The translations under genes and the position numbers were made by a program. A stretch of DNA of 64,000 nt from Schmidtea polychroa (Eukaryota): NCBI GenBank assembly GCA_044892525.1, contig CM097887.1, positions 10,974,001-11,038,000 on the forward strand, written 5' to 3'. The notes beneath the pieces were generated by a model that was given only the letters and a program-made list of their open reading frames with translations, was not told where the DNA came from and did no database searches. Of the stretch, positions 1 through 23,513 are shown piece after piece. How positions within the stretch are numbered: the first letter of the stretch is position 1; each line of letters opens with the position of its first letter.

Positions 1-2
1 CA

Positions 3-3000
3 TTGGCTATAATACAAGCTATCAAACACTTCCGATATTTACTATGGGGACATGAGATATGCATAACCACGGATCATCAACCATTAGTGTGGTTAGGGCA
101 ACATAAAGAAGCGTCCAGTAGACTGATGCGATGGGCCATGCAATTGCAAGAATACTCCCCATTTATAAAATTCAAAGCGGGAAGAGCAAATGCCAACGCC
201 GATTGTATGTCAAGATTTATTTTCCCAGATTTGGTGGATTCAGAAATGCAACGCATATGCTTGATAGTAGCGGAAGATTTGGATTTCTGTCAATTACGAA
301 AGGACCAACAAGAGGACGCGGAATTAAAACAAATTATCGATTATGTAAAAACCGGAAAGACAGATGTATATGCGAAAGACCAAAAATTAAAAGAACATAT
401 GGATAAACACCGACACCGATATATTATAGAGAAAGATTGGTTGCTGATAATGGATGGGGAAAAACGATTAATGTGTATACCGGAAAACCGACGAAAAGAG
501 TTACTAACGCAATATCACGATGGGAGATTGGGAGGACATATGTCATCGAAAAAGACGTTAGCAAGAATGAAACAGAAATATTTTTGGCCTACGTTAACTG
601 AAGATGTAACCGAATGGGTAAAAAATTGTCTAACTTGTGCAACCAGGAAGAATACTGGATCGAAATGGAAAGCACCTTTAACGCCAATGCCAGTACCAAT
701 AGAACCAATGACAATGATATCCATGGACGTAGTTGGTCCACTACCAGAGTCAGATAAAGGAAACGTTTACATTCTAGTGATCACAGACTTTCTTACGAAA
801 TTCCCAGAAGCATTCGCGATGCCAGACCAAAAAGCTAAAACAATCGCAAAAATTTTGGTAGAAGAGATATGTTGCCGATATGGAACACCAAAACAAATCT
901 TAACCGATCAGGGGACTAATTTTATGAGTGAGATAATGAGCGAAGTAACAAACTACTTCAAAATAGCAAAACTAAGAACATCTCCATACCACCCTCAAAC
1001 CAATGGGATGACGGAAAGATTTAATGGAACACTTATACAAATGTTATCAAACTACGTTGACCGTCACCAACGAGATTGGGACGAATATATAAACCTATGT
1101 CTTATGGCGTACAGAATGTCGATTCACGCATCAACGAAAATGAGCCCATTCAAATTAATGTACGGAAGAGAATGTAATATGCCAATGGACCTGGAATACC
1201 AACCACCGATATCGCAGTATATGGAGATCGATGATTATGTTACGAAATTCAAGGAAAGAATGCAAGAAATTTGGGAAACTGCGGGATTAAATATCAAGTT
1301 CTACCAGGAAAGTTATAAAGATTTACACGATCGAAAGAAAAACGTGAAGCAACATACGTTCCAAACAGGTGATTGGGTAATGATAGAAACCCCGGAATTA
1401 ATTCCAGGAACCACAAAAAAGTTACAACGCAACGGAAAAGGACCATATGAGATCCTATTCGTAGGCGAAACTAATGTAAGAGTGAAATTGGTAAATAACC
1501 CCTTTACCAGACCAATATACGTAAACGTGGCACGATGCAAATCAATTCCGAAAACAGCCACTAGTCAACCAGAAGGCCGTACATTAACCACACGTTCGCA
1601 AACCTACCGAATGAACATGATGCAACAACTCGCAGAACCGATCACTGGACGATTAGGTATCCAACCATCAGAAGCGGAAAAGATTGTAAAAGAGGTAAAA
1701 ATTAGAATACCTGGATGGGCAAAAGATCGATTAGATTTCGAAATATTAGGAGGATTATTGACGATGATCGAGAACTATGCAAATAGAGAAAGGACACACC
1801 CATTATTGCGAGTAGTCAAAAGCCAATGGCCAATATTATTTACAATAACAGATCATTACGGAGACACACCATTACACAAACTCATGAAAGTAGGTAACAA
1901 CGAGCAAATACTAGAAACAATAGAAGCATTTCACGACTGCAAGCGATCAACAGAACAAACAAACAACCAAGGTTACACACCATTAATGATAGCCGCAAAC
2001 AGAGGCAAAACAAAAGACATTATAACCGCATTACTCGATACCGGATCGAAAATAACTACACAAGACCACGAGCGGAAAAACGCTCTACATCATGCTATCG
2101 AAGGGAGAAGTACCGAGGCGTTCACGTCATTGATGGAACTACTATCATATGAGGACAATCGGGAAGTCGGAAACATGTATGATGGATTATTAACAGCGAC
2201 CAAAGAAAAACTGACAACAATTACCGGAATATTAATTACATGGAGAAATCCAATTCAAAACGATTATATGATCAACGTAAACGAAGCGTTCACGAGAGGA
2301 GAGAACACGCTGATGAGAGAAGCTATGAAAGGACATCATTTATTCGAAATCCCGAATCAATTACTAGAACGAGGGATAAAATTCACAAATCACAAAGACG
2401 AACAGTTAACAAAAAAGCGAATCGACACATTCGAAAAATCACTATTCCAATTTACTAACCAAGTACGAAATAAATATTGGGAAACGGTAAGTGTGTTACA
2501 TATGATGGACACAATGAATAACATCCGCGAGAATTACATGGATATTATCCAAATACTTACAGCAGAGGAACGAATCAATAATCCAAACGGAAAGAAAACG
2601 AAAATAAGGTATGAGAAATCCAGGGAATCAAAGTCAACAACGAACCAAACGGTCACAAACAACGTCATCGAAACCAAATCAATGAGTATAGATCAAGAGG
2701 CAATAATACGCAAAGCAAAAGAAGTGTTCTTTGAGGAAATGTTAGAGCTGCCAGACGAAATAATATTGTCCAAAATAATAAAAGCCGTACACACATACGC
2801 AAGAGATCAAACCACGGGTTTAGATATCGGGAAAATCAAAACCTTCTTGCCTCGAGCATTTACGATGGTAACAAAGGATTCCAGAACACCTCTACAACAG
2901 GCAATACTAGCTGCAAAAGAGAATAGAGCAATAACGATCATGAGAATCCTTGGGGAGATGGGCGAGGAAACCAACACGAAAAATGAACAAGGTGAAACCG

Positions 3001-4829
3001 CCATGATGTATGCAGCTATAACGAAAATACACCCAAAAACACTCCACATCCTACATCAATCAGGATCGAAACTAGACGAAAAGTCCAATGAAGGAAATTC
3101 CACCTTGGACTGGGCAACCATACAGCCAAACTTAGAAATGATCAGATTTATTTGCAAAAATGCGACAAAAGAAGAAGTTGAAAATATGTGCAAAAACACA
3201 TCTCAGTTTCAATGGAATACGGTACGGAAAAATCTAGAAGCAATGAAATTATTATTAACCTGGAGAGTACCACAAAATAATAAATATGCGATAAATGTAA
3301 ACGAATTCTACGAAAACGGAGAAAATGCGATGGTAAAGAATACCCTAACTAAGGGGGGGACGCCTAAAATAATTTTAATAGTATTAAATAGAGAAGACCT
3401 AAAATTCACGCAAAATCAGAACGAGCAACAACGAATTGGGAAACATCGTCGTATGCAATTGAGAGAGTTAGTTAAAGAATGGAATAGAAAGAGGCATGCT
3501 GCAACGGGCAGGAAGGAGTTTGAATTCGAAGCAAAATTAGCAAGAAACAGAGTGCTAACAGCATATCGCAGATTATTGAACGATATAAATGTCGAGGACG
3601 ACATTTTAAACGACAGCGGGGGAGATAAACACGATGACAATAACGGAAAAGGCCGAAAGGAGGATAAAGAGAAAAGAGAACCGGAGGAGGGTAAACCGGA
3701 AAACAAGGATTCGGATACGAAAAGAGAGGGAAACAGCCCGGGAACTAAGACCAAAGAGGAGGAAAAATCGAATAATGGAAAACAGAGGGTATGCCTACCT
3801 TTCACTAACAAAGAAATAGAGACAAATATGATATTAATGATAATTATGCTTACCATGATAGAGTTAGTAACAGCTCATGGAGGGACGAGGACGATAAAAG
3901 AAACCAAAGAAGCGGAGAATCAAGATAGCAAAGAGGACGAACTAAAACAAGAAAAGAAAAAGCAAGCACAAGAGCAGCAGTGGGATTTAAAGGAAGAATG
4001 GGACTTAAAGGAAAGGTGCATACTAGGAAGATGCATGTCTAGAGCGTATCAGAAACTAGTACTGATAAATGAGGACACAGAACCAATAACAGAAGTAAGA
4101 ATACAAGAAGCATACCGAAACCGAGACGGGAAAAGAATAACGAACGTTAAAGGAAAAGAGGTACACCTAGGAAAAGGTGGCGAAGTAGTAATAACGCAGC
4201 TCCAACCAAGAAAAGAGCACAAAGTCTGTATTTCAAGATTGGGACCGGGTGAGAGATGCCATCAATATGTGACGCAGCAGCAGCCCCCGAAGGAATATAC
4301 GGTTTGTATCTGGAGAAACGAATCAAAAAGAGAATGCCGACGATACCCGGGGAAAAGAGGAAAGAAAAGGAAAAACCACGACGAAAAGGACGAAGGAGGA
4401 AAGCACAAGAAAACCGGCGAGGAAGCTCAGGACAACTATGTTTCGGAGGAAGAGATGGAAAAAATACAAAAGATGGCAAAGGAGGGTATGAACGAGGAAA
4501 TAGCAAGAATACGGGAAATGATGAAAGGAAATGGCAAAAGAGGGAACGAGAAAAGTACAGAAGCAATATCAACATTAACAAACCAGGAAAAACCAGAGAG
4601 TATAAGCGTGAAGCAGATGATGTGGATCAGTGGGATAATAATAACAGGGGCATTCCTAATCATAACGGGGGGAACAATAAAAATAATTAAGGATAAACGA
4701 CATCGCGGAGAACTAGAGATGACTCGAATCAGAAATTTCCAACATCGAGTGAAACGACCAAGTGATATCAAACAAGAACAGTGGGTGGAGGCCTGGAACG
4801 CTCAGCGCCCTCCAAACTCACGTATATAG
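3..4829 (+). CDS. Partial Pol polyprotein: RNase H C-terminus, integrase (HHCC, DDE, GPY), two ankyrin-repeat modules and a type-I membrane-like tail in one open frame
   Basis: TDHQPL (RNaseH); YHDGRLGGH...CLTC zinc finger; SMDVVGP / LTDQG / TERFNGT catalytic motifs; GPY at ~1440; ankyrin-like GDTPLH, GYTPLMIAA, NALHHA (~1850-2110) and RTPLQQA, GETAMMYAA, GNSTLDWA (~2880-3120); hydrophobic MILMIIMLTMIELVTA (~3828-3875) and MMWISGIIITGAFLIITGGTI (~4617-4680). Confidence 0.9.
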   Translation: MAIIQAIKHFRYLLWGHEICITTDHQPLVWLGQHKEASSRLMRWAMQLQEYSPFIKFKAGRANANADCMSRFIFPDLVDSEMQRICLIVAEDLDFCQLRKDQQEDAELKQIIDYVKTGKTDVYAKDQKLKEHMDKHRHRYIIEKDWLLIMDGEKRLMCIPENRRKELLTQYHDGRLGGHMSSKKTLARMKQKYFWPTLTEDVTEWVKNCLTCATRKNTGSKWKAPLTPMPVPIEPMTMISMDVVGPLPESDKGNVYILVITDFLTKFPEAFAMPDQKAKTIAKILVEEICCRYGTPKQILTDQGTNFMSEIMSEVTNYFKIAKLRTSPYHPQTNGMTERFNGTLIQMLSNYVDRHQRDWDEYINLCLMAYRMSIHASTKMSPFKLMYGRECNMPMDLEYQPPISQYMEIDDYVTKFKERMQEIWETAGLNIKFYQESYKDLHDRKKNVKQHTFQTGDWVMIETPELIPGTTKKLQRNGKGPYEILFVGETNVRVKLVNNPFTRPIYVNVARCKSIPKTATSQPEGRTLTTRSQTYRMNMMQQLAEPITGRLGIQPSEAEKIVKEVKIRIPGWAKDRLDFEILGGLLTMIENYANRERTHPLLRVVKSQWPILFTITDHYGDTPLHKLMKVGNNEQILETIEAFHDCKRSTEQTNNQGYTPLMIAANRGKTKDIITALLDTGSKITTQDHERKNALHHAIEGRSTEAFTSLMELLSYEDNREVGNMYDGLLTATKEKLTTITGILITWRNPIQNDYMINVNEAFTRGENTLMREAMKGHHLFEIPNQLLERGIKFTNHKDEQLTKKRIDTFEKSLFQFTNQVRNKYWETVSVLHMMDTMNNIRENYMDIIQILTAEERINNPNGKKTKIRYEKSRESKSTTNQTVTNNVIETKSMSIDQEAIIRKAKEVFFEEMLELPDEIILSKIIKAVHTYARDQTTGLDIGKIKTFLPRAFTMVTKDSRTPLQQAILAAKENRAITIMRILGEMGEETNTKNEQGETAMMYAAITKIHPKTLHILHQSGSKLDEKSNEGNSTLDWATIQPNLEMIRFICKNATKEEVENMCKNTSQFQWNTVRKNLEAMKLLLTWRVPQNNKYAINVNEFYENGENAMVKNTLTKGGTPKIILIVLNREDLKFTQNQNEQQRIGKHRRMQLRELVKEWNRKRHAATGRKEFEFEAKLARNRVLTAYRRLLNDINVEDDILNDSGGDKHDDNNGKGRKEDKEKREPEEGKPENKDSDTKREGNSPGTKTKEEEKSNNGKQRVCLPFTNKEIETNMILMIIMLTMIELVTAHGGTRTIKETKEAENQDSKEDELKQEKKKQAQEQQWDLKEEWDLKERCILGRCMSRAYQKLVLINEDTEPITEVRIQEAYRNRDGKRITNVKGKEVHLGKGGEVVITQLQPRKEHKVCISRLGPGERCHQYVTQQQPPKEYTVCIWRNESKRECRRYPGKRGKKRKNHDEKDEGGKHKKTGEEAQDNYVSEEEMEKIQKMAKEGMNEEIARIREMMKGNGKRGNEKSTEAISTLTNQEKPESISVKQMMWISGIIITGAFLIITGGTIKIIKDKRHRGELEMTRIRNFQHRVKRPSDIKQEQWVEAWNAQRPPNSRI

Positions 4830-4989
4830 AAAGGAATATGACTGTATATAATTGTAAAAAGTAAGTATATCTTATGTATATAACAGTATTATATCTTTAT
4901 ATAAGCGCGGTATCAATATTATACAATAACGGGAATCATAAAATAAAATTAAATTTACATAAGAGTTGAAAAGAGTATATAAATTAGGA

Positions 4990-5349
4990 ATGGATCAAGG
5001 AAATAACGAAATGAACCACAATACAGTAACTGAAGAATTATGGAAGCAACAATGTGCCGTATTAGCACAATTAGTGTCCAATTTGCAAGAACAAGGACTG
5101 ACGATGCACAGAAACCTGATCGAGAGTATGAACAGAGGATTTAGTTATTTGAAGATAATTGAAGACCAGAGGTTAAAAATCGAACAAATGCAAAGAGAGA
5201 TAGAGAGGATAACCCAATATAGCCGTCGACAGGAAATTGAAATAGACAGAATGATGGAGGAAGCAGAACAGACAGAAATAGAAGACTGGTCGGAATGGCT
5301 AATGAATAGAGAGGAAAGCGGACACGAAGCCGACTCTTCCGAACCCTAA
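4990..5349 (+). CDS. Small coiled-coil protein, cargo ORF1 of element A
   Basis: Open frame 4966..5349; first ATG at 4990; heptad-like E/Q/L/I-rich central part and acidic C-terminus. Confidence 0.6.
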   Translation: MDQGNNEMNHNTVTEELWKQQCAVLAQLVSNLQEQGLTMHRNLIESMNRGFSYLKIIEDQRLKIEQMQREIERITQYSRRQEIEIDRMMEEAEQTEIEDWSEWLMNREESGHEADSSEP

Positions 5350-5434
5350 ACCAAACCTAGCTCAAAATGTAAATAATTGTAAATAAAATATCGAACCTGT
5401 ATCGATAAGAACTATTTGTACATATAATTATAGA

Positions 5435-6823
5435 ATGGATAAACGACAAAGAGAAGAGTTCAGAGAGATTGTCGAGCAAGTCCGAAAATCTACAACGATC
5501 AGAATACACAAACATGTTATGTGCGGAATATGTGAAAAGTTGTTAAAGGAACCTCACCAAACGCAATGTGGATGCAGAGTATGTAAAGAATGTATCAGTG
5601 AAGCAATAAAGAATAGACCACAAAGGTGCCCGGTGTGTAAAGAGACACTAATATCGAGTTTAGAAGACACTAACGAGGATAAAGCCGCAGTGAAAGACAT
5701 GTTAAACACCAACCTGGGATGCAAAAATGCCCCATGCGAATGGAAAGGAGTAATATGGAAGGTAGTACAACATATGGGAGAATGTATGTACAGAATTGGC
5801 CAGTGTGAAAGGTGCCATAAAACCATTCGAGCAAGCGAAGAAAAAGAGCATCAAAGGCAGTGTGAGGAGAGATTGGAAAGATGTGAACACTGTGGAGAAA
5901 TAGATACGTGGATAAATCTCACCCTCAAACATCACAATGTCCAAGAGGAGAGAGTATGTGCGGAGTTCAGTGGGGAATGCCCAAACGGATGTAACCAAGG
6001 GGAAACAATGAAGGTGGCACAGCATCTAAGGGAATGCGAAAAGAAAAGAATGACATGTGTACTAGGTAGATGGGGTTGTCAGAAATTACTACACCGAGGT
6101 GAGTTACCACATCATTTAGTAGAAAATGCTTCAACTCACGCAGAAATGTGGTCGACTGCGTTACAAGAAAGCGAAGAGAAAGTAAAACAAATGGAGATAG
6201 AGATAACATCGTTGAAAGTGTTAGTCAAAGAACTACTAGAAGAAAGGAAAGCGTTCGAAGAAGCCCGAGCAAACATAAAGATGCAAATAAACCGAACAGA
6301 AATTAGTAATAATCAGGCCAAGGAGCTACATCAGAAAATACGGGAAATAAATCTAAATGAGATAACCCCAACAGCACCCTACATATGGAAAATAACGGGA
6401 GTAAAAGAAAGAATACGAAAAGCAAAAACCGGAGAAGAGACAAGAATAACAAGTCCTACATTCCATTCTTGGAAAAATGGGTACAAAATGAAAATGAAGA
6501 TATATCCCAACGGGGACGGAACCGGATTAGATACGCACTTTTCGATTTTCTTTCTGTTATGTAAAGGAGAATACGACGAAATATTAGAATGGCCGTTCCA
6601 GGCAAAAATCGATATTACTCTGATGAGCAACCAAAGTATACATGAGCAAAGCTTCAAAACAACGGGGAATCAAATAGCTTACCAGAGGCCCCTCAACGAA
6701 GAAGGATCAGCAACAGGAGCACCTACGTTCATCTCACAACAAAGAGTAGAAGATATGGCGAGAAATGATACCATATATATCAAGATGACCGTGAGGAAAG
6801 AGGAGAAGGGTAGAACGGAATAA
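5435..6823 (+). CDS. TRAF: Intronless TNF receptor-associated factor (TRAF2/3/5-like): RING, TRAF zinc fingers, coiled coil, MATH domain; cargo ORF2 of element A
   Basis: CGIC-x11-CGCRVC..C-x10-CPVC RING; C-x3-C...H..C zinc fingers (CKNAPCEWKG...HMGEC); MATH motifs YIWKI, SPTF...GYKM...YPNGDGTG..THFSIFF...GEYDEILEWPF..K, DTIYIK. The specific paralog cannot be assigned by eye. Confidence 0.95.
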   Translation: MDKRQREEFREIVEQVRKSTTIRIHKHVMCGICEKLLKEPHQTQCGCRVCKECISEAIKNRPQRCPVCKETLISSLEDTNEDKAAVKDMLNTNLGCKNAPCEWKGVIWKVVQHMGECMYRIGQCERCHKTIRASEEKEHQRQCEERLERCEHCGEIDTWINLTLKHHNVQEERVCAEFSGECPNGCNQGETMKVAQHLRECEKKRMTCVLGRWGCQKLLHRGELPHHLVENASTHAEMWSTALQESEEKVKQMEIEITSLKVLVKELLEERKAFEEARANIKMQINRTEISNNQAKELHQKIREINLNEITPTAPYIWKITGVKERIRKAKTGEETRITSPTFHSWKNGYKMKMKIYPNGDGTGLDTHFSIFFLLCKGEYDEILEWPFQAKIDITLMSNQSIHEQSFKTTGNQIAYQRPLNEEGSATGAPTFISQQRVEDMARNDTIYIKMTVRKEEKGRTE

Positions 6824-7016
6824 CCAATCGAATAATGTTGTATATAATAATCTGTATATATCGGTGTATATAACTAATAAAATATTATATAATAATAGTA
6901 TGAAAACCCTAAATACGAAAACCCAAAAATGATGCGAAAATTTCCCAAGAAACAGTAAATAATGAATAAATTCCTTTTTCATAATAAAAAGATTAATCGA
7001 TGTCTATGATTTAGAG

Positions 7017-8072
7017 ATGACACAAGAGAAAATAACCGAAACTGCGATAGACCCAACCAATGTCAACAAGACACAAATTCCCCGAGAACATAACAAAAAA
7101 TGGAACAAAGTAATGTTCCAACTAACTAATCTCACCCGAAATCACATCGAAGAAACTAGAGAAGATGAGAATAGTCAATACCAATGGTTAATACACAACT
7201 TAAGAGCGGAAGCAGAAGCATGCAAAAGAGCATCAAAATGGGCGTCACTAGAAAATACCCGCCAAGAAGCACACAGACACTACTTAAAGCAGCTAGTGCA
7301 GGAAGCGAGAAAGAGACTTACCGATGAGAACACCAAGCGCGAAGCGGAAAAGCAAATAGAAGACAGGAAAATGATGCACTTAGTGGCAGAAGCGAGAAAA
7401 TGGAAAAGACAAAACAGAGAAATGAAAAAAGAGATGAAAGAATTGCCCATGAGACTCGGATACGAAAGCGAACAAGGTAAATGGGAGGAGAATTTAATAA
7501 TAAAGGAAGAATTGAAAAGGTTGAGAAAGGTCGCCGCCCGAAGCCAAACCTGGCAAACAAAGGCTATGGAGTTTGAGCGACATTTGGCAATGAAGTGCGA
7601 CATAAGAGAGCACGAGAATGCCGCAATGGAAGAGATGATAACCCAACAAGCGGGACGGGTTGTGGAATTAGTAAATCAGGTAGAAGAGATGAAAAGAGAC
7701 CTTAATGGATTACAAGGATCGCTGGAACAAAGAAACATGGTCCTAGCGGGAAAAAACAGAAAATTAGAAAACGAAAGGAAAATGTACACCGAAAATATTA
7801 AAAACTTAGAAATAGAAATTGAAAAATGGAAGGGCGACGAGAAAATCAAAGCCCTAGACAAACAGATAGAGGCGAAAGATGAAGAGACAAGGTATCTCAC
7901 CTATCTGCTCGACGAGGAATTGAATATCACTCGAGCTCTAAGAGACGAAGTTAGTGAATTGAGAGCTCAAATTCCCCAATATTACCTACCATACGACCCT
8001 ATTGCGATACAGTTACATTCCGCGGTCGATAGTGATGAAGGTTATGTAGGCCAGGAGGAAACCTTCGTATGA
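7017..8072 (+). CDS. Long coiled-coil protein, cargo ORF3 of element A
   Basis: 351-aa uninterrupted ORF, E/K/R/L-rich heptad pattern, acidic C-terminal tail; no recognisable family. Confidence 0.7.
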   Translation: MTQEKITETAIDPTNVNKTQIPREHNKKWNKVMFQLTNLTRNHIEETREDENSQYQWLIHNLRAEAEACKRASKWASLENTRQEAHRHYLKQLVQEARKRLTDENTKREAEKQIEDRKMMHLVAEARKWKRQNREMKKEMKELPMRLGYESEQGKWEENLIIKEELKRLRKVAARSQTWQTKAMEFERHLAMKCDIREHENAAMEEMITQQAGRVVELVNQVEEMKRDLNGLQGSLEQRNMVLAGKNRKLENERKMYTENIKNLEIEIEKWKGDEKIKALDKQIEAKDEETRYLTYLLDEELNITRALRDEVSELRAQIPQYYLPYDPIAIQLHSAVDSDEGYVGQEETFV

Positions 8073-8240
8073 GGGTGGATGAAAAGATGAAAAACTAAAA
8101 ACCGGGACGTATATCCCAAACAAAAAAATTAAAGTATTGTAAAAGTATTCAAGGGACTGTAACCCAAACTATTAAATTTTATATCAATGTATACGTATAA
8201 GTCGCACTATAGCGCACCATTAACTGTACATATTATAGAT

Positions 8241-8939
8241 ATGAAAATCGAGGAAATGATAGAAATTATGAGCGACGTAGAAGAGGGAGAGATTGAGGCA
8301 GAAACAACAGAAACACAAACGCTAAAGGCCGAGTTACGGGAAGAGAAATACGAAAACGGGAGATTAATAAACAAATACCTGGAGGACCGGAAAATGATAA
8401 AGGTGTTAAAGAAAGAGTGCGAAGCGTTGGGGGAAATAAAAAGAGAAACGGAAGAGGAAAATGAATGGCTACACGAACAAAGGAAGCGAGGGAAAAACTG
8501 GGAAAAGATAGCGGAAGAGCTATGGAAAGAGAGGGCAAGCTTCAAAGCAAAGGAGGTAATCCAAGACTACTGGAAAACTGAGGCGAAGGAGCGCCAAACA
8601 GCTATAAATAAATTAAAACGACAACTAGAAGAAAACCAACGGGAAAGTAAAGAAATGAGGAAGTGGGTCCGCAAATATAGAGAAATAGAAAGAAAACATC
8701 AACAACAAAATTACCTGCAAGAAAACGAACAAGATCTCCTACAAATCGAGCTAAAAAGAAACCTTGAAAAGAAAAGGGAAGAAATTAGACGCTTGGAAAA
8801 AGAAATTAGACATCTAAAGAGAGAAGCCCGTGAAAAAGACCGACAATTGGAAATGCTGCCCGAGTTAAGACACAGGGTAATTAAAGCAGAGTCCACCTTG
8901 ATGAGAATCGGCGAAAATAATCCAAATCAGAACCATTAA
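8241..8939 (+). CDS. Coiled-coil protein, cargo ORF4 of element A
   Basis: Open frame 8187..8939; ATG at 8241 preferred because it follows a TAG acceptor-like motif and the charged helical composition starts there. Confidence 0.65.
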   Translation: MKIEEMIEIMSDVEEGEIEAETTETQTLKAELREEKYENGRLINKYLEDRKMIKVLKKECEALGEIKRETEEENEWLHEQRKRGKNWEKIAEELWKERASFKAKEVIQDYWKTEAKERQTAINKLKRQLEENQRESKEMRKWVRKYREIERKHQQQNYLQENEQDLLQIELKRNLEKKREEIRRLEKEIRHLKREAREKDRQLEMLPELRHRVIKAESTLMRIGENNPNQNH

Positions 8940-8994
8940 ATTAAGGGTCATTAAAACCAATTGTAAATAAACATAATGAATGTATAATAGTATC

Positions 8995-9636
8995 ATGCGA
9001 GGCGAGATGATGATAACAATGATGGTATTGATGATTCTGATGGAGAGCAAACAAATAGACGCCCAACCGAAAATCGTACGAGATTACCGAAATCAAAATC
9101 AAGAACCTAAACAAGAATCCAGTCAATGCACATACCCGATGACCGTAAAAACCCATATCATCCAAACCATTCAATCAACCCGATCACACATCAACAACAT
9201 CCAAACAATGTGTAAAAAGAATCCCATTTGTAAAATGATAAACAAACAAATCCTCGAACAAATTCAACAATTCGACCAGTTGGAACAACAAATGCAACAA
9301 GAGAATTTTGGAAATCTGGTAGAAAAGCCAAAAATACCTCCCGAAATCAATGACACCCATTATCTCATATATGTGGTGATCGCAGAAACCCTCCTCCTAT
9401 GTCTACCAATATTCATGAAAATTTACGAAGTTCGAAATAGATGTAGAGTCTCGACATCAATAAGAGTAACCTCGAACCAAAATCCTCAAGAAGTGCCCCT
9501 GACAAATCTTAACCGACCTCGAACCCCGAGTAATCAACCAATCCAGCCGAAATCTAATAGTCAGACCTATCTCAACATCAATACCCAAACCAACCAACAG
9601 CCGCCAGCAGAAGCATCAATGGTTAACAGTTCATAA
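8995..9636 (+). CDS. Predicted small type-I membrane protein, cargo ORF5 of element A
   Basis: Signal-like MMITMMVLMILMESKQIDA; Q-rich ectodomain with three Cys; TM-like YLIYVVIAETLLLCLPIFM; P/Q/N/S-rich tail. Confidence 0.6.
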   Translation: MRGEMMITMMVLMILMESKQIDAQPKIVRDYRNQNQEPKQESSQCTYPMTVKTHIIQTIQSTRSHINNIQTMCKKNPICKMINKQILEQIQQFDQLEQQMQQENFGNLVEKPKIPPEINDTHYLIYVVIAETLLLCLPIFMKIYEVRNRCRVSTSIRVTSNQNPQEVPLTNLNRPRTPSNQPIQPKSNSQTYLNINTQTNQQPPAEASMVNSS

Positions 9637-9742
9637 ACTCTAATTCAAACATTTGTGTTATTATATGTGGAAACTTTTATTGTATGTACAAACTATCACC
9701 TTAAGTGATACTTGCTTGGTCTTGCTTTGACCTTGATCTTAC

Positions 9743-9748
9743 AATAAA
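9743..9748 (+). terminator. Candidate polyadenylation signal after the cargo cassette
   Basis: AATAAA about 105 nt after the last stop codon, followed by a GT/T-rich tract (tttttatcattgttgtataattttccgtgttcgtgtt). Confidence 0.45.
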
Positions 9749-10177
9749 ATTTTTATCATTGTTGTATAATTTTCCGTGTTCGTGTTATATTTTTTTTGAA
9801 TGAATGAATTAAGTTAATTATGCAATTGCGGGACGCAATTTTGATGGGTCCCCGAGTGATTTGTTGGGCTGAGTCGAAAATTTAATCGTTGAAAAATAGG
9901 AAAGTAGGGAAGTAGAACATTAAGAAAAATAATAATAAAATAAATAAAATCAGAAATAAAATAGAATAAGATATAAGGAAAATAATAAGTAAGACATAAG
10001 AATTAAAACAAAAAATAAAATTAAGAAAAGATTAAAATAGAACAAGTTGACAAATAAATAAAGAGGAATTCAAGAAATAATAAGGAAATTAAGGAAATAA
10101 ATAGAAAAACATATTAAAAATAAAGAAAATAAGGAAAAAACAACCTAAAAACAAGAAAATTATATTAAATTAATAGA

Positions 10178-10260
10178 AATAAGCGGTACTCAACTCTGAT
10201 TGGTCCGCACAAATAAGAATTTGATATATATACAACTACCAAAAACATTAAATTTACTGT
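10178..10260 (+). promoter_or_regulatory. LTR Pol II promoter: conserved box, inverted CCAAT, TATA, initiator-like site
   Basis: AATAAGCGGTACTCAA (10178-10193) and GATTGGTCCGC are shared with 63452-63481; TATATA at ~10225; Inr-like TTACT at ~10254-10258. Confidence 0.65.
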
Positions 10261-10756
10261 TAACCCCGAGCATTTCATAGGTAAGAAAAATGTTTACTGT
10301 TGTTTACGGTTAACCCCGAGCATTTCATAGACATCTACAACTCACGGAGACTTATTTCAAGGATCAGCAATACAAGTAGAGCAACAGTTAATTCGAAAAA
10401 CTTCACAGCAATTCGAAATCAGTCACAGCAATCGACATTCAACGAACCATCATCAGACTAATTTGGAACGACTAACGTTAATTTTCCGATTCAGCCTAAT
10501 TCCATAGTAAGGGATTTTTATTTATGATATTGTTTTTCGAAGTTAATAGTAAATATGTATATTTAATGAGCAATTAAACTTTTAAATTTAACCAGACTCT
10601 CTTTTCATTTGGTCCTGAATAACGATTTTGATAAAGTAAATAATTTAAATGTTTAAAAGTATTTATTGGTAACAGGTGAACTCTTACATAATTTTTATGG
10701 ATATTTATTTTGAAGTGATAGTTTCATGATTTCTAATATTAACGAGAAACGTGGCG

Positions 10757-10824
10757 TTGAGATACTCCATGTCATGGTGTGAGGTGCCTTCGGGAGCTCA
10801 GCCGGTGGACATGGAGTATTTCAA
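10757..10824 (+). other. Long RNA hairpin capped by a cUUCGg tetraloop inside the LTR
   Basis: TTGAGATACTCCATGTC (10757-10773) pairs with GACATGGAGTATTTCAA (10808-10824), 17 bp with one G-U; inner stem TGAG/CTCA and CC-TTCG-GG. Confidence 0.6.
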
Positions 10825-12734
10825 TCACGCAGCTAGATTGGGCCGAAATGTGAAGGCTTCTTCACGGGTCCAATTGCTGAAGGACTTAAAATCTGTCAGA
10901 GTACCGAAATATAGACCGAAAGGAAACCTTCTGAAAGTTTCGAAAATAGGATATGTGCTTCACAGCGACTGAGGGAGTTCTCATATTAACTCTGTATTGT
11001 CCAGAGTCGTCTTACAAGACATTCATGCCACTTCTGTCTATAAATCCGAACTTACCATGTGGGGGAAAATACCATTAAACATCCATCGCTGGTTTTCTAA
11101 CATATCGAGAAGTTGAAATTGCATTCGGTAGATTTTTGAAAAAGTAACTCTAATTTAGGTCATCTCTTTCAGATGCGACATCCAAATCTTAGCATATGAT
11201 GAGGAATTTACAATAAAGGAAAAGTAAAACATAAAACCACAATAATACTGTATTCAATCACATATATTAACAAAATCTGGTAATACCCATTGAATAATTT
11301 TCATGCTGTTGCGTCGAAATATCCACTACTGAAATATGCTTCATAGAGTCTAGTTGGCTGGTTCGTAGAGATCTCCCATCGTTCAAAAGCATCCAATATT
11401 GAGGAAATTACGAGTCGTAGTAAATAAATCCGACATCATAAGCTCAGATGGGAATCGACACGCGATGTAACATTTGCAGTTCGCTCAGTACGGTTGATAG
11501 TTACAGATAAAATTTCCATCGAATAGGCACCCATACATACAGACATACTGCTAACATAACTATGAGTAGCGTCATCCGGTCAGAAATATGCATGAGAAAC
11601 AGCAGAATCATTCCGAGTGCCTCTCACCGCAGGGAATGCCGCCATGTGTCACCCTCTCTAGGATTCTTAGTGTGTGAGTAGTAATCAGTGGTCCTATTAG
11701 ATAATGCTGACATGAGATGTGACTTCCAGATGACTGACTCTTAAATTTCACTACTGATAAAGGCCATTCGTACCACTAAAAAGATAAGCCAAATAACCAG
11801 TAACCGACTACTAAGATAAGGGACTCTCTAAAGTGCACCCATTAAAGATAATTTTGCTTAAATTAAATATGCTAAATAAAAATCGAAATTGTTGAAGGGG
11901 TATTTTAATTAATAATCGAAAATTCAAACCAAACTTTATAACTAAACCATAGGAAGTTTTACCTAAGTGTTGTAGAGGTTTATCGTAATTCTAATTAGAT
12001 GTTACAAATAATAGTAGTAGCCTTCGAGCCAAATTTAAATTAACTAAAGTATCTACAGGAATTTTTGGGTTATAAAATAGCTAGTAATATTGTAGTTAAA
12101 TTTCTCATATTCCCTGTAAATGACGTATTGTAATAGAAAACTAAATCCGATAACAAATTATTATGTAATTACAATATTTTTACGATGCTATATTTCTACG
12201 ACGATATCACCGTATGGTATGGATAAGGGGTAATCATAAAATAGTGACGTATAGTTTATACGAAATTACGAGTTGTTACTTATTCCGCTACTTGAGGTAA
12301 GGGTGCAAGTTTTTACTAGTTGCATTTGGTCCAAAAACCTTATTTTGCATTAGAATAACAACAAATAATCAGCGAAATTTAAACGAAGTGTAGTATAGTG
12401 TATTTGTAATGAAATAGGGTTATTCGCTCCGGCATGAATAAATCCGTAAATTGCCTTTATGTGCGATAGATAGAAATCCAACTCGAACGCGATAGACGAA
12501 AATTAAAATTTTTACAAATAATTTGCATTCGTCAGGGAAGCAATCAGGGCGTTGGGGAATAATTTTCTGTAAAGGATACGTAAAATATTAGTAATCAAGG
12601 GTGAAGGGAGGGATCCTGTTTCATCGACTCGTCTTGTTTTCTTCCAGCACTAAGTATCCAATAGCGAATAAACCGTATATCTGATCCGAAATTTTTGGAT
12701 ATAGTCATCATAGTTTTCTTCTTTAGCCATCCAT

Positions 12735-13487
12735 ATGTTATCAAACCACAAATCAGCTCTACGTCCCTGCTTCTCCTGCTCAGATAAAAATGCAGTGATT
12801 AAAGATCTTCAAGCCCAGATCGGTCGATATAAACGAAAAATCGACGAACTGGAAGGGACATGGTTTAGTCCCGCTCGGATGAAGGAGATCCAAAAGAAGC
12901 TCGATCGTAGCGAGCATTGCCGGGACGCGCTAATATCTGAGAGCCGTGCCCAAAGAAGTCTAATCAGAGAACAATCCGAGGCACTGCATAAGGTTTACGT
13001 GCAGGCGGCTACAACCCGAAAAATAGTGCAGATTCCCATCCGAGAGGCCGATGACATCTTTCCGCCTCATCACAACCTTTCCTCGAATCCATCTCCACCG
13101 TTCAAGAGACCGTGCCAAGACTGCGTCGAAAACGAATTGTCCCCCAAGCGACCAGATGTTGTCGTCACGGGTACCAGTAAGCCCCCCACTGCTAGTCCAT
13201 CTGTATCAGTCACCCCTCTGCAAGTGGCATCTTCAAGCAAACCCAAGCGCAAACAACTCTCTCGTGCAGAGCGCAAGAAGAGACAGCGCGAACGCGCCAC
13301 TACCAAGCCAAACATCCCATCAATAGAGGACTCAACCAACGGTGGCAACTCTCACGTGTCCATCGACCTAACAACGGGACCCTCAGCACGAATCATATCA
13401 GCCGCTGGCGTAACGTGGGAAGAGAACGCTTCCGAGTTTTTTAACCTCGACGAATTATTCGCCGACGCTGAATGGGAGAAACAATAG
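12735..13487 (+). CDS. 250-aa LTR-internal ORF (coiled coil, basic cluster, acidic-aromatic C-terminus; putative regulatory protein)
   Basis: Uninterrupted ORF in a GC-richer block; polypyrimidine acceptor ttttcttctttag (AG 12725-12726) just before ATG; KPKRKQLSRAERKKRQRER; C-terminal EFFNLDELFADAEWEKQ; AATAAA at 13611. Confidence 0.65.
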   Translation: MLSNHKSALRPCFSCSDKNAVIKDLQAQIGRYKRKIDELEGTWFSPARMKEIQKKLDRSEHCRDALISESRAQRSLIREQSEALHKVYVQAATTRKIVQIPIREADDIFPPHHNLSSNPSPPFKRPCQDCVENELSPKRPDVVVTGTSKPPTASPSVSVTPLQVASSSKPKRKQLSRAERKKRQRERATTKPNIPSIEDSTNGGNSHVSIDLTTGPSARIISAAGVTWEENASEFFNLDELFADAEWEKQ

Positions 13488-15769
13488 AACCCCAGTGGCG
13501 GTCAGGACGAAGAACAAGGATCCGATCTATGTTGATTATGATGTTTTCTCTTCTTTCGACAAACATTAGTAAAGTGTACAGCTGAATCCTTGTGTCATAA
13601 CGTTGAAATTAATAAATCTTGTTGTCTTACACGTTTTCGTTCATGAATAATTAGACTTTAATTAAGTGGGTTGAGTAGAGAACCCGCCAGATCTAGTGAG
13701 AAATTCCCAATTTGTATTCAGCGAATCCTGATAAGTGGTTGTGTAAGGAAAAGGACGTAAGCCCTTCTAACGGCAGTCGTGAATGGGAAGTCGAGGCCTC
13801 AGCAAGGAGTAGTTTTAAGGCAGAAGCTCACCTGCTTGCTGGCGTCTCGCCTGCATAGTGCAGTACCAACGTGAAGTGATTCACGGGCACTATGTTGGAA
13901 GAAAGTTATGTGGGGTTTCACTCCAGGTTGACAAATCGGTGGCACCTTTTATTCGAGATGGACAATCAACCCTTAGACCCGTCAACATGGTAGAGTGGTC
14001 AGCCGAGGTGTAACCCCAACAGTAAGTATAAATAGCCAATTTCTTATACAAAAAGAAAAAGACATATAAAAGCGTGATCATGCACAGAAAGGATAGTAAA
14101 GGAAGGTATAATGGAAGCAGTATTAGAAAATGCCAAAAGCAATTGCGAAAGGAAAGAATTCGGAAATCCGAGAAAAATCAATAAATTGTAAAATCATCGA
14201 AATCGAATTGGGAAAATGGGACAAGTATAGATTAGCTAATGGTTAACAAGATGATGATTAGGGATTTATCAGAAAATGGTTAGGAAGGGTCAAAAAGCAT
14301 TAAAAATGAATAAAAACAGAAAACATTAATTAATTAATTAATTGGCTAATAGAAAACCCGATCTAATGGGAAACCCGAGCCAATGGAGAACCCGAGATAT
14401 GAAGGAAACCCGAGCTGGGTAAACAAGAAGAAAAGTAAACAGAATGAAGATTTGGGCCCATTAGCTTGACACAATGATTAAGTGGAAAAGAGCAAGGAGA
14501 AGATAATGCGTGTAGAAAGGCCGGAAGGGCCATTAATTATCTTTGTTCGTTGGACCATTATGACTGACAGCCGAAACAGATATGTGGAAGCAAATGTCAA
14601 GTGAGAGATTGGCTCGGCAATAACCATTTGTCATCCCGATTTCGAAGAGTATATAAGGAAGGGGAAAATCAGAGCAAATCGGCATTTTGCCTCAGCTAGG
14701 GTTAGAATAAATCAAGCTTAGGAAAAGGTAAAAACGAATTTAGGAGATTAGGGAAAAATAAGATATAGAATAGGAATACGGAAAGGTGAAAAGAATCAAA
14801 TCAAACAGAAAAAGAGGAAAACGTGGGTCAAGAGAATCTAAAGAAATAAAAGGTGAATATTATCTTTTGTCAAAGCATCAACGCCGTGCTGAGAATCGGT
14901 CAAACGTAACTTTGACTATTGATTGTAAACTGTTGAGAAAAGATTGTAAATTTTGTTATTCCAATATACGTTGGGTCGTTATGGTTTTGATTTATAGGAC
15001 ACGAGGATTCAGAAGGTACCGACTTAAATTAACTGAAAACCCAACAAACAAAACAATTATTTTTACATATTACATTTTACATTTTTTACATTTTAAAAGT
15101 GAAAAAACGTGACAGTGACAGACTAATAACGTGGGTAAGAAGAAAACATAAAATCGCTCGCCACGAACAAAAAAATTAAACTTCCGGTGACTTTAAGAAA
15201 AAATAAATCTTGATTATCATTATTTTAGAGAAATCAAATAAAAGTTAAAACTTCAAAAACTGCACTTTTTTCTTGACAGAAAGACAGGAAATTTACATCT
15301 CTCTGGTCATAGTCAACCGGGAGACGGGAGACAAAAGCTGATTTCCAGAGACTCCCAGCCAAAACGGGAAAGTTGGCAAGCCTAGAAAGTACATTTGGTA
15401 AATTTACTCAATTGTTATTTTTCAAAAATTGAACTCGTATATAAAACCTTCAATTCTGAGAAATTGTGATATAAAGAAAATATGTTTTATTATTTGATGG
15501 ATTTTGGTTGATTTAGCCAAAAGGACATGCGGAGTCATGAAATGAAATTCTACCCGAACCTTTGAATATTAACCCAACAATTATAAACTGAAACATTTAA
15601 ATAAATTCCTTTAAAAATTTTCAAGTTCACTTAGCATTTTATATACTAAAAAGTAATCCTTAAAATATAAATTGTTTTAAAATTGTTGAAGTATTGTACA
15701 CCAAGAAACGCTTTTCATTTTTTTCAGTTTTTCATATTAATAAATTATATGTCTCTTAAGTCTTCTAAT

Positions 15770-16468: not shown

Positions 16469-19400
16469 TTATCTGAGTAGAGGCATTCTTTCATTGTTGT
16501 ATATATAATTTGGTCTTTCCTCCTTCTCCTCATCTTCTTCAATGACTTTATAAGTCGTGTGACTTATTTGGTTAGGTCTGAAGCAATACAACCCTACAAG
16601 GGTGGCAACTACAACTACAACGACAACCGCCGTTAGAATGTAGTAAATGTCTGACGAGCTCTTTTCGAAATCTAGTGGGTCGTCTAAAATAAAAATATAA
16701 AATTTTAATTTCAATTATAGAGATTTCATTTTGTTTACAAAACTAACAAATCTTACTTGTGAATAATCTATTTCCAATAATATTGTTATCGTAAGCATAG
16801 CCGAACTTATTTGCCGGAGTAAACAAATTCTTATTTCTGATTAATGGTATGAAAGGCACAATAAAGTCATCACTATGCTGTCCAATTGGTATTGAAAATT
16901 TTTCCGGGTACTAATAATATTTAATTACTATAATTAAATTGGAGTAAATTCCCAAAATGCAAATTTAAAATTATTAACTAGAAAATTTTTAAATAAAATT
17001 ATAAGAAATAAAATTTATAAAAAGAAGTCAAACTTTATATTTTACTTATAATTTGTCAGTACTATATATATCAGCTTTTTTGGCGAATAATATATTTTTT
17101 TATTAAATTAATTAAATAATTTTATCCTTATGAATAATATTTTCATGAATATATATTTATACTTACATATTTATATTAAGATATTAATTTTTTTATTTGT
17201 CTGTCGGAAATATTTGTAATGAGCTTAATGGAGATGATTCTATTAAAGTTGATCTTATTTTTTATATTACAAATTTTACATAAATTTTCTCCTATTTCCT
17301 TTTATTTTATATTTGATTTTAAATTTATTTTTATTTAATTTAGTATTTTATAATATATATTAATAGAAGAGGATATAATAGAGGAGCATGGTGAACCATT
17401 TGTAAGAACGGTGGTGACACCCTCGTGGTATCAAGGGTTATTATTACTGATGTGTTTCTACTAGTCTTGTACCACCAACTGAGCAAAACTGGGATAGACT
17501 GGATAACCATTCTATGGGATCCCATCAAAATGTATTTTTAAAAACTAAGTATTTTTCCTCTCCAAATTTCCAAAAAGAAAAAAAATACTCACTGGTATTG
17601 GCTCCCGGTTAATCACATTATTTATCGAGTATTTTAATATAAATTTCTTTTTTTTAAGTAACAAGAACAACAAACCTACTTTAGATAGTGTATTTCTCAA
17701 AAGCCAAATTTCGAAGATTTTGTCCATAAATGTGTGGTGCAGTAAAAATAATGGATCATTGGGACTCGTAGTGAAATCCATCCAAGTTCCATTAATAAAA
17801 CTATGAACCTCATAAAGCTTAAGTTTAATACGATAAAATCATAATTTTCTTTTACCATATTATGAATCATGACATTTTGATGGGTCAGTCCTTTTCCTAT
17901 GTCTTTCATTCTCACGTCATTTGTATCTGGATCAACTCGATAATATCCTTCGGCGAAATTCCGAAAACTTTTCCTACTAAATGTGCTTGAATTGAAGGGT
18001 TCCGAATCATATTGGTTGACTGAGAATAACTCATCAATTTCGTTTTGATTAGGAAGTCTATCAACTGTCAATGAATATTTTCGCCATAAAAATGGTTCCT
18101 CTTGACCAGGATCGCAAATATGACAATCAAAATCGTAAGATTTCTGAGGGCAAATTGGTTTCCATTTGAAAAATGTGTTGTTAGAATCTTGTTCCTCAGT
18201 GGGAATATCGCCAAGTAAGTCATTTGTACATATATTACAAGTTGTTTGATTTGTCCAGTCCCAATAGGGCAAGGTAAAATTATAATATTCAAATTGTTCG
18301 ACAGCAATACTACTTAATAAGTCTTCAAACATCAGTAAATAATGTCGATGCCACGTAAAAANNNNNNNNNNNNNNNNNNNNNNNNNNNNNNNNNNNNNNN
18401 NNNNNNNNNNNNNNNNNNNNNNNNNNNNNNNNNNNNNNNNNNNNNNNNNNNNNNNNNNNNNNNNNNNNNNNNNNNNNNNNNNNNNNNNNNNNNNNNNNNN
18501 NNNNNNNNNNNNNNNNNNNNNNNNNNNNNNNNNNNNNNNNNNNNNNNNNNNNNNNNNNNNNNNNNNNNNNNNNNNNNNNNNNNNNACGAATAAATCACAA
18601 TCCTCTAAAATTAATATCAGCAACGAATTTATTGATATTATTTCATTAACTCATTAAATTATAAATACTACATCATAATTGTTTCCGTATATAGCATTTG
18701 ACACAGATTATGATGTCCGACTGATGATGAAGAAAATATCCTTTAAATATTTTTCATTTGTTTGGTGTTTTAATTAAAAATGAACCATAAATTTTTTGAT
18801 ATAACAATAATAATAACAATAATAACAATAATAACAATAATAATAATAATAATAATAGTAAAATGAAATAAAAAAAGCTTATAGTTGAAACAAAATTTTC
18901 TGTTCAAAACATAATAACATTTGCGATTCTATTTTTGATGGGTTGTTTCTAGTAATAATAATTTTTAGAAATTGTTAAAAATTATAGTTATTTAATTAGT
19001 TAAAATCTTACTTTATGAGCGAAGTCTAATTTGTTGTCCTTCTCAGTACATGATTCCATTAGATCTTTAGAAATCGTACTCCTGGACGCATAGAAATGCA
19101 AGTAAACCATTGTATCATAAATGGTGGCATTGACCAATTGAATGTTATTCTCATTGACAGGGTCGCAATGAAGATTTGAAGAAGAATTAGTGATCATGAA
19201 ATCCGACAACTGATATTTGCTGATGTTAAGTACTGACAAAAAAATAAAAACATCATATGATCCCATGTTGAGAATATTTTGTCTAATCTTTTTCGGTGAA
19301 GCTATCTCACAGTTTTTCCCTTGCCATCCTGATTTACACTTGTCACAAGCTATCCCATCATAATTTGATATGCAAATGCAAAGGAATTTAAAAAATCTTG

Positions 19401-19733
19401 ATGGCCAGTTGAGTCTGTCATCATTTTCCAATTTTCCGATAATAACATCTGGGTGCTCTGTGTGATTTTGAAAGGGAATGGTAATCTCACAAGATCCACG
19501 CAACGGACCACCGCAAATCAAATCTAAGGCAAATAAATATATTTCCACAAAACTAAATAAAATTTACCATTATACGTTGGACAACACATTGAGTTAAAAA
19601 GTGTGGCATTTCCACTGCAAATCTTTGGTATTAAGAAATCATTCAAAGGTAAGAAAGATGCGAAGATTAAACCTATTGTGATAACCAGCATGATTAAACT
19701 ACCAAAGAAAAAACCTTCAGTTTTATAAGTCAT
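16469..19733 (-). CDS. tyr: Tyrosinase / tyrosinase-related protein, multi-exon (19733-19568, 19523-19012, ~18597-17856 across the gap, 17808-17680, 16910-16757, 16683-16469)
   Basis: Signal peptide, CCP, CGG..RGSC, DDRLNWP, C.C.SNYDG..C..CKSGWQG..C; CuA LHFYASR...DFAH...TWHRHYLL...LPYWDW; CuB IHNM|VHSFINGT...SPNDPLFLLHH; PIG...VPFIPL; TM AVVVVVVVATLVGLYC; C-terminal ERMPLL. GT-AG introns of 44 and 47 nt with consistent phases. Confidence 0.9.
18362..18585. other. Assembly gap (N run) within the tyrosinase CuA region
   Basis: Run of N. Confidence 1.
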
Positions 19734-22341: not shown

Positions 22342-22687
22342 GTTAGAATAATCTCAATTGTGCTACATAGTAATGTTTAATATTTTTATTTAATATAAAA
22401 GTTTTGACAAAGTTTCATGGCAGTGTAAATGTAAATGATCTCCAATTAAATATTTTACCATCTCAGAATGGTAACTAGTGAAATTAATTTTGTAAATTAG
22501 ACGTGTGATCAATTGAACTGTGGAGTTCATTATTTATTTTAATGTTTTTAATTTAATAAGAATTTTTAAAAACACGGTGGAATTATTTAGAATAAAAGTA
22601 ATATATTTTTCATAAACACAAACATTTCAATGGATTTGTCAATGTGGAACAGTTGTGAAATAAGAATATTCTTCATAATCACACATG

Positions 22688-23513
22688 TCCAATACAATCA
22701 CTAATATATCCAATACAATCACCAATATATCCAATACAATCACCAATATATCCAATACAATCACCAATATATCCAATACAATCACCAATATATCCAATAC
22801 AATCACCAATATATCCAATACAATCACTAATATGTCCAATACAATCACTAATATATCAAATACAATCACTAATATATCCAATACAATCACATATATCCAA
22901 TACAATCACTAATATGTCCAATACAATCACTAATATATCAAATACAATCACTAATATATCCAATACAATCACTAATATATCCAATACAATCACTAATATG
23001 TCCAATACAATCACTAATATATCCAATACAATCACCAATATATCCAATACAATCACCAATATATCCAATACAATCACTAATATGTCCAATACAATCACTA
23101 ATATATCCAATACAATCACCAATATATCCAATACAATCACCAATATATCCAATACAATCACCAATATATCCAATACAATCACCAATATATCCAATACAAT
23201 CACCAATATATCCAATACAATCACTAATATGTCCAATACAATCACTAATATATCCAATACAATCACCAATATATCCAATACAATCACCAATATATCCAAT
23301 ACAATCACTAATATGTCCAATACAATCACTAATATATCCAATACAATCACCAATATATCCAATACAATCACCAATATATCCAATACAATCACCAATATAT
23401 CCAATACAATCACCAATATATCCAATACAATCACCAATATATCCAATACAATCACTAATATGTCCAATACAATCACTAATATATCAAATACAATCACTAA
23501 TATATCCAATACA
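22688..23513. repeat. 21-bp minisatellite, ~39 units (TCCAATACAATCACYAATATR)
   Basis: Directly visible tandem array; one 19-bp unit near 22890. Confidence 0.97.

Follow-up and report, generated by a model that had tools for sequence, protein, structure and literature searches.

The window analysed here is a stretch of 64,000 nucleotides from Schmidtea polychroa (assembly GCA_044892525.1, contig CM097887.1, positions 10,974,001 to 11,038,000), and it includes the 3′ half of a 30,454-bp giant Gypsy retrotransposon of the Burro kind. This env-bearing element has multiple copies in the genome, and the one described here inserted recently. After its integrase, the element carries ankyrin modules and a membrane-protein tail at the end of its first open reading frame (ORF1), followed by the separate genes ORF A, TRAF, ORF C, ORF D and ORF E and the 3′ long terminal repeat (LTR). 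This cassette is under purifying selection as a maintained accessory genome, and its modules recombine between sublineages. By means of ubiquitin-ligase and anti-apoptotic proteins, it likely helps the host cell to survive.

The accessory cassette is under purifying selection

The mean pairwise ratio of nonsynonymous to synonymous divergence (dN/dS; Nei–Gojobori type, kappa 1 and 2) was 0.01–0.02 for integrase, 0.07–0.10 for the ankyrins, 0.12–0.15 for the ORF1 tail, 0.14–0.19 for ORF A, 0.11–0.16 for TRAF, 0.09–0.13 for ORF C, 0.10–0.15 for ORF D and 0.29–0.43 for ORF E. In the same kind of selection test, a Bcl-2-like region of ORF1 gave 0.04–0.08, and a RING ORF upstream of ORF1 gave 0.23–0.27. 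Bootstrap values of the corresponding ratio of proportions (pN/pS) against the most distant copy were below 0.5 for every cassette gene except ORF E (0.43–0.65), for which the bootstrap interval of one close pair included 1 (0.26–1.04). The ORF within the LTR had a pN/pS of 0.31, with synonymous sites saturated. The mean ratios were well below 1, and the neutral ratios that an earlier note on this DNA had named as telling against selection on the cargo did not appear.

A genome-wide query with the element's TRAF gave 1,819 candidates, and the best 119 of these, which were scored, were 85–100% identical to it, with an internal stop in five. Fifteen copies were fetched across the identity range of these best 119. 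Both LTRs were recovered in nine of the 15 copies, each of the nine with 4-bp target-site duplications (TSDs) read from the flanks and with LTR pairs 98.7–100% identical; the other six were deleted, interrupted or out of range. The gene order tail–A–TRAF–C–D–E was kept in 15/15 copies, and the cargo is not peculiar to the copy in the window. In a test independent of TRAF, the best 40 of 449 candidate matches to the LTR end yielded 20 internal regions and one unpaired LTR, and a TRAF lay at the expected spot (7.75–8.06 kb) in all 20 regions. The LTRs of different sublineages showed only patchy alignment (65–92%), and several lineages must therefore have moved recently. Two points weigh against this picture of an intact, selected cassette. 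Sampling among the best-scoring matches favours intact copies, and the pairs compared are not independent because of shared history. Furthermore, stops or frameshifts were present among the 15 copies in ORF A (2), ORF C (1), ORF D (4) and ORF E (4, plus one poorly covered), as expected from decay after insertion.

A sister family in the same genome, which is Burro1-like and of which one copy was examined, contains a MATH domain inside its frame of 4,791 codons; its LTRs measure 4,319 bp, and its reverse transcriptase (RT) is 89% identical to that of the window element. Its genes stand in the order upstream RING, ORF A, TRAF, an added BIR-RING IAP, ORF C, ORF D, a signal-plus-transmembrane (TM) gene in the place of ORF E, and the LTR ORF. 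The cassette proteins of the two families are 25–32% identical, and their E genes align poorly. In a smaller family, examined in two copies and in two further ones that are broken and more distant, the frame has 3,334 codons and the LTRs are 1.06 kb long; env is in frame and a membrane tail is present, but the cassette is absent, and the LTR pair is 99.8% identical. Because the same gene order is kept at 25–32% identity and the small family is cassette-free, the cassette is therefore old, and the lineages differ by gain or loss of the IAP and the internal MATH domain. The suggestion of the earlier note that a virus-like accessory genome had been under long-term selection is thus borne out by the ratios, the conserved order and the distant homologues of the sister family.

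Young copies would be intact whatever the selection, and the genome does contain host TRAFs whose coding sequence is one long exon, some of them with a frame of 454–473 aa, as would suit a cassette of passive, recently captured host DNA without function. Such an origin is extremely improbable given dN/dS far below 1 at near-saturated synonymous divergence, the order conserved between deep families, and the element-like base composition of the element TRAFs, which are 27–31% identical to the host full-length TRAFs examined. Element and host TRAFs have a CGC-type RING in common. In trees that included 16 host-like rows from 15 fetched loci, a subset of the host TRAFs, the TRAF/MATH domains of the elements lay on one side of a branch with support of 72/83 (MATH) and 91/94 (full-length) and with long branches. 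This weak grouping is compatible with a single capture of TRAF by the elements.

Trees of single modules disagreed on starred branches. The copy at C4:29.09 grouped with that at C2:34.42 for integrase and ORF E, with that at C2:182.81 for MATH, and with the window copy for ORF D, showing that modules recombine between sublineages. The MATH loop aligned to the SSS loop of TRAF3, which presumably has a peptide-binding role, read QIA in 5/16, QMC in 5/16 and QLC in 6/16 copies; the host full-length TRAFs retained a serine-rich loop. The MATH types were uncoupled from the ORF E types: a single MATH type was seen alongside three different types of ORF E, making a lock-and-key pairing of the two inside the element less likely.

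This result bears on whether the element might encode a self-contained signalling module, in which ORF E or the ORF1 tail would recruit the element's own TRAF, in analogy to LMP1 of Epstein–Barr virus. The TRAF is co-encoded with two predicted type-I membrane proteins, and a (P/S)xE core is retained in three ORF E tail alleles, in keeping with such a module. We consider it quite doubtful, since the pocket alleles do not co-segregate with the ORF E alleles, QIA, QMC or QLC stands where the TRAF3 pocket has its serine triad, and the tails are without a full canonical TRAF-binding motif.

Putative action of the cassette on host cell death

ORF1 is a single frame of 4,732 codons (4,617 aa from the first Met), which begins 9.4 kb upstream of the window. 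It encodes, in order, Gag, three CCHC knuckles, ubiquitin-like and Bcl-2-like signals (both weak), Env, protease, RT, RNase H, integrase, the ankyrins and a signal-plus-TM tail. Gag matched PF03732 (Pfam, E 2e-9), and catalytic motifs were present in protease, RT, RNase H and integrase. Env lies in frame between the Bcl-2-like region and protease and is a fusion glycoprotein of Monjiviricetes type (PF24664, E 1.1e-67). The ubiquitin-like region (Pfam, E 0.26) is 46% identical to that of the sister family, and the Bcl-2-like region 33% identical. Pfam found no dUTPase in ORF1, the corresponding region of which is 62% identical to that of the sister family, and no MATH domain, of which the sister family has one there. 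The ankyrins and the TM tail, listed in the earlier note as separate genes, are thus present, but within the ORF1 polyprotein, and the two ankyrin modules are 25% alike. The ORF upstream of ORF1 (161 aa) encodes a RING domain (PF13920, E 4e-11), which is called IAP-type from its likeness to the IAP RING of the sister family.

Considering these domains, the likely targets are the host TRAF–TAK1–p38/JNK pathway and the apoptosis machinery rather than NF-κB. They would be acted on by the TRAF, which is a RING E3 whose peptide pocket has changed, and by the IAP-type RING encoded upstream, the Bcl-2-like domain and the ankyrins. The coiled-coil proteins, like the two membrane proteins, may aid particle release or spread. 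Several observations tell against such an anti-apoptotic role. The Bcl-2-like match is weak (Pfam E 0.068, below the cut-off; best Bcl-xL match E 1.1), and its label leans on published HHpred work. No BIR domain, the clearest anti-apoptotic cargo of the sister family, was found in any scanned ORF of the window element. In addition, Pfam placed no family over its cut-off for ORFs A, C, D and E, the ORF1 tail or the LTR ORF.

The earlier note had proposed manipulation of TNFR/NF-κB or cell-death signalling. A search for the Rel-homology domain gave no match in the genome, its own control being uninformative and the same kind of search having found Runt, and the best match to a TNFR repeat was below the cut-off. 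NF-κB, IκB and IKK were not detected by BLAST in two planarians (Table 1 of PMC4484250). Planarian TRAFs control cell survival (PMC7586133), and traf2-1 acts in the TAK1/MKK/p38 infection response (PMC4993586). Because no Rel domain was found and these papers connect planarian TRAFs with TAK1 and p38, we infer that the target would be stress-kinase and apoptosis control. NF-κB is probably not the target of the cassette, and the cell-death part of the proposal remains plausible.

It is also conceivable, though in our view unlikely, that the cassette serves mainly particle assembly, egress and cell-to-cell spread, with little host signalling. Env is strongly conserved (pN/pS 0.01–0.11), the signal-plus-TM tail of ORF1 occurs in both related families, including the small cassette-free one, and ORF E shows the variability of a surface antigen (49–100% identity among 150 matches). 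However, the gene content points to cell-death control, with the TRAF complete and accompanied by an IAP-type RING, a Bcl-2-like domain and, in the sister family, a BIR-RING IAP; moreover, the small relative inserted recently without any cassette.

The element may also bear on the TRAF expansion reported in planarians (121–282 transcripts; PMC6109357, PMC7586133). Part of that expansion may be element-derived, because 123 of the best 150 MATH matches lay in frames of 671–4,846 aa, typical of Burro polyproteins. The host expansion is also real, the other 27 of these best 150 being host-like. A cluster of host-like TRAFs was observed at C2:114–122 Mb, with others elsewhere on C2 (L068–L082).

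Intergenic signals and expression of the cassette genes

Five gaps of 55–193 nt separate the genes from ORF1 to ORF E (Table 1). The motif TGTAHATA occurs ten times on the plus strand of positions 1–15046, always within these gaps, and was found nowhere in 8,980 coding bases, the LTR or 20 kb upstream. Dinucleotide shuffling gave a mean of 0.53 occurrences, and ten were reached in 0/2,000 shuffles. The 3′ parts of the other 15 copies retained 10–12 motifs, and the sister family had seven in six gaps, versus 0.63 expected, and two in 12,981 coding bases. A motif lies 13–22 nt past the stop codon in four of the five gaps and in five of six in the sister family. TGTAHATA corresponds to the Pumilio element and includes the UGUA that cleavage factor Im binds. 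Derivation from host TRAF 3′ untranslated regions (UTRs) was rejected, the motif being present in 0/10 host TRAF 3′ flanks, and a forkhead-site reading was dropped for want of enrichment (5 versus 4.0).

An AG stands 1–4 nt before each likely start codon of the cassette ORFs. YAG was found 0–4 nt before the first ATG of 4/7 ORFs (p 0.003) and of 6/9 ORFs in the sister family (p 8e-5), compared with 43/418 internal ATGs, the two families not being independent in this test. Among copies, TAG and CAG are swapped at these acceptor-like sites. ORF D and ORF E probably start at 8241 and 8995 rather than at their first ATGs; this choice of the second ATG was made post hoc and for ORF D is backed by other copies in which the first ATG is lost.

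Flatworm operons have gaps of about 100 bp, with a threshold of 300 bp, and spliced-leader (SL) trans-splicing occurs in planarians (PMC12582326, PMC8629364). The cassette shows the spacing of SL operons, with co-oriented genes no more than 300 bp apart and acceptor-like sites before the downstream genes. Its genes would give separate mRNAs, each starting at an acceptor just before its ATG, and the likeliest single route may be operon-like processing of a long transcript by 3′ cleavage in the gap and SL trans-splicing, with cis-splicing a close rival. More broadly, we suggest only tentatively that the element might express its accessory genes as a eukaryotic operon through the host SL trans-splicing and 3′-end machinery at a repeated signal, while recombination reshuffles its TRAF-pocket and membrane-protein alleles in the course of an arms race against cell-death control by the host.

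Expression like that of a retrovirus, by alternative cis-splicing from one upstream donor or by internal promoters, with TGTAHATA as a translational-control or TATA-like element, is a possibility to be taken seriously, though we would not assume it. It would produce the same acceptor pattern before the ATGs, acceptors being widely common to cis- and trans-splicing (PMC12582326), and AGs resembling acceptors stand before the upstream RING ORF and the LTR ORF as well. Evidence that runs counter to operon-like processing includes the conserved donor-like GTAAGT in gap 1, which fits cis-splicing, the absence of AATAAA/ATTAAA enrichment in the gaps (10 versus 7.3, p 0.17), and the AG before ORF A, which is AAG rather than YAG in six other displayed copies. 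However, motifs of 3′-UTR type 13–22 nt after the stops and nowhere else in the element are easier to explain if each gap ends an mRNA. Contigs from a run of uncertain type, guessed to be RNA, covered 30/30 bins of 1500–9800, with no canonical splice joint among the 19 of 163 loose ends listed, and weigh neither way. The gap signal offers a cheap and direct handle on how an LTR element expresses five downstream genes.

Structure of the element and comparison with known systems

The positions of the features are given in Table 1.

Table 1. Features of the 3′ half of the element and of its downstream flank (window coordinates)
Feature	Position	Strand	Details
3′ part of ORF1	3..4829	+	Stop-free frame: RNase H, integrase, two ankyrin modules, signal-like segment, Cys-rich ectodomain, TM segment, short tail
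Integrase zinc-binding and core domains	477..995	+	Pfam PF17921, PF00665; motifs
Two ankyrin-repeat modules within ORF1	1899..3149	+	Ank_2, E 5e-19 (Pfam)
Predicted type-I membrane protein, end of ORF1	3828..4829	+	Hydrophobic segments 3828–3884 and 4632–4688
Five intergenic gaps	4830–4989, 5350–5434, 6824–7016, 8073–8240, 8940–8994	+	55–193 nt
TGTAHATA motifs	4843, 4875, 5368, 5378, 5417, 6839, 6853, 6865, 8225, 8962	+	All ten of 1–15046, all in gaps
ORF A	4990..5349	+	119 aa, coiled-coil-like; sister-family homologue 30%
TRAF	5435..6823	+	Full-length, 462 aa (RING, zinc fingers, coiled coil, MATH); Pfam RING and MATH, E 7e-27; altered peptide-pocket loop
ORF C	7017..8072	+	351 aa, coiled coil; sister-family homologue 32%
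ORF D	8241..8939	+	Likely 232 aa, coiled coil; sister-family homologue 25%; first ATG (8187) not conserved
ORF E	8995..9636	+	Predicted type-I membrane protein; varies more than any other cargo gene, three or more deep alleles
Candidate poly(A) site	9743..9800	+	AATAAA then GT/T-rich tract just before the 3′ LTR; seen directly, putative function
3′ LTR	9862..14021	+	4,160 bp, TGTTGGG...CCCCAACA; identical 5′ LTR copy 26.3 kb upstream
LTR ORF	12735..13487	+	250 aa; long helices, basic segment, conserved acidic/aromatic C-terminus
Target-site duplication GTAA	14022..14025	+	Same four bases precede the 5′ LTR
LTR piece of a smaller env-bearing Gypsy family, outside the element	14056..15046	+	84% identity over 994 bases

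The stop-free frame of ORF1 is followed by intronless, co-oriented ORFs, and 7,482 of the 8,299 bases between integrase and LTR are coding, in keeping with the tight packing that the earlier note described. Its TRAF, its three coiled-coil ORFs and its type-I membrane protein were likewise recovered. The observed heptad periodicity was reached by four (ORF A), none (ORF C) and one (ORF D) of 200 shuffles, by a crude score on which the integrase control was also positive, and ORF E has one TM segment and a hydrophobic N-terminus. The uniform A-rich codon style claimed for the cargo does not extend to the LTR ORF, which has 30% A compared with 39–46% in the other ORFs. A database search with the TRAF gave a single match. 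The ectodomain of the ORF1 tail is predicted to be all-beta. A fibronectin type III domain was unsupported there, the model having a mean pLDDT of 58 and a best VIA-align Z of 6.6 (root-mean-square deviation 2.7, 84 aligned) among unrelated beta-sandwiches. The tail had no PDB sequence match, no relative among 1.84 billion representatives and no usable Atlas match, and a new fold is not claimed on these searches. The LTR ORF may possibly encode a nuclear regulator; its model (pLDDT 60) consists of helices and disorder only, with Atlas matches below 0.9. The sister-family LTR has a second ORF (L067 6927–7340), a 137-codon frame ending in basic KRGRPRK, which we take to be AT-hook-like, and the family of the window element is without it.

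The upstream 5′ LTR and gag, missing from the window, were both found, and the element has the features of Gypsy/Metaviridae: LTRs, a TSD, a primer-binding site, and the order protease, RT, RNase H and integrase. The primer site after the 5′ LTR is complementary to tRNA-Pro(TGG) of the same genome, and a 74-bp tandem array lies between the upstream RING ORF and ORF1. The earlier note was right about an ORF within the LTR and wrong about the LTR size of about 5.2 kb, which is ruled out by the identical 4,160-bp upstream copy and by the foreign piece beyond the 3′ LTR, a piece found after the 3′ LTR in 0/15 other copies. The flanks are alike beyond the 4-bp TSD because the insertion hit a short 27-bp tandem repeat (L001 3500–3567; window 14022–14039).

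Some neighbouring and genome-wide observations may be recorded here. A tandem array of tRNA-Pro(TGG) with a 475-bp period lies at C1:130.90–130.95 Mb (L100), with 2,190 pattern matches genome-wide. Tandem elements with a common LTR (three LTRs, two internal regions, 26.2-kb period) were seen at C2:177.68–177.73 Mb, and similar LTR spacing at C4:46.26–46.28 and C4:69.87–69.89 Mb. Within the window, partly N-masked minus-strand exons with a WHR motif (17697–19563) are presumably those of a tyrosinase-like host gene. A 21-bp tandem array of about 42 overlapping units, open in several frames, occupies 22515–23700. A broken or internally deleted copy akin to the small env-type Gypsy family (45114–52471; protease/dUTPase-like region, RT, integrase and signal-peptide tail) sits between repeats 6,693 bp apart. 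Another Burro-type LTR starts at 63153–64000 (TGTTGGGCTG), 70–73% identical to the LTR of the 30,454-bp element, and a further element probably runs off the window at this end.

In the literature searched, which left most subscription papers and Repbase outside, so that the primary Burro papers may show the gene order, we found no selection test of the cassette, no sister-family homologous cassette with an extra IAP gene and internal MATH, no module swapping between sublineages or set of three TRAF peptide-pocket alleles, and no TGTAHATA confined to gaps with an acceptor-like AG. A published test of the proposed Burro action on apoptosis and ubiquitination was likewise not found, and a trans-splicing-resolved operon of an LTR element did not turn up in one search listing. 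The headline combination of cargo is already in print, and the present study adds selection and recombination data, a family comparison and a testable operon-like signal. The selection, order and recombination data make the cassette a maintained accessory genome whose genes are gained or lost between lineages.

The lead to planarian Burro given in the earlier note proved apt. TRAF/MATH, ankyrin, BIR, BCL2-like and env domains have been described in Burro elements, which have already been proposed to meddle with apoptosis and ubiquitination (PMC6431247). Two or three CCHC knuckles and domains resembling ubiquitin/SUMO and dUTPase also count among the features of the group. BURRO1 is derepressed after piwi-2 RNAi (PMC8532177). 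The window element resembles them in its length of more than 30 kb, multi-kb LTRs, giant ORF1 (a 4,732-codon frame, compared with about 4,900–5,100 aa in the group) with Retrotrans_gag, three CCHC knuckles, a candidate BCL2-like region, in-frame Env, the protease-to-integrase order and ankyrins, and in its TRAF/MATH and coiled-coil cargo and tandem repeats (PMC6431247). It differs from Burro1/GYPSM1 in that ORF1 is without MATH, BIR is lacking, and a complete TRAF is encoded by its own gene downstream of ORF1; the Burro1-like sister family, which has both an internal MATH and a BIR, is a distinct family of the same genome. The element is thus Burro-like but not Burro1, and, compared by description only, Burro-2, -3 or -4 may correspond to it. 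A Burro-like element of Dugesia tigrina likewise has an ORF1 without MATH, a MATH domain in an accessory ORF and an in-frame env, but its MATH ORF lies upstream, and the ORF1 there, 5,140 aa long, contains two knuckles and shows homology to midasin, whereas the window element has TRAF downstream and an IAP-type RING upstream (PMC6431247). Plant Ogre and fish foamy-like endogenous retroviruses are also large LTR elements with extra ORFs, for which the portion of PMC6431247 consulted describes no TRAF/IAP cassette or in-frame env. Flatworm SL operons resemble the cassette in their closely spaced co-oriented genes, which here are separated by 55–193 nt and have an acceptor-like AG immediately ahead of the start codon; those operons comprise host genes with read evidence (PMC12582326, PMC8629364), whereas the genes described here lie within an LTR retroelement and are known from sequence.

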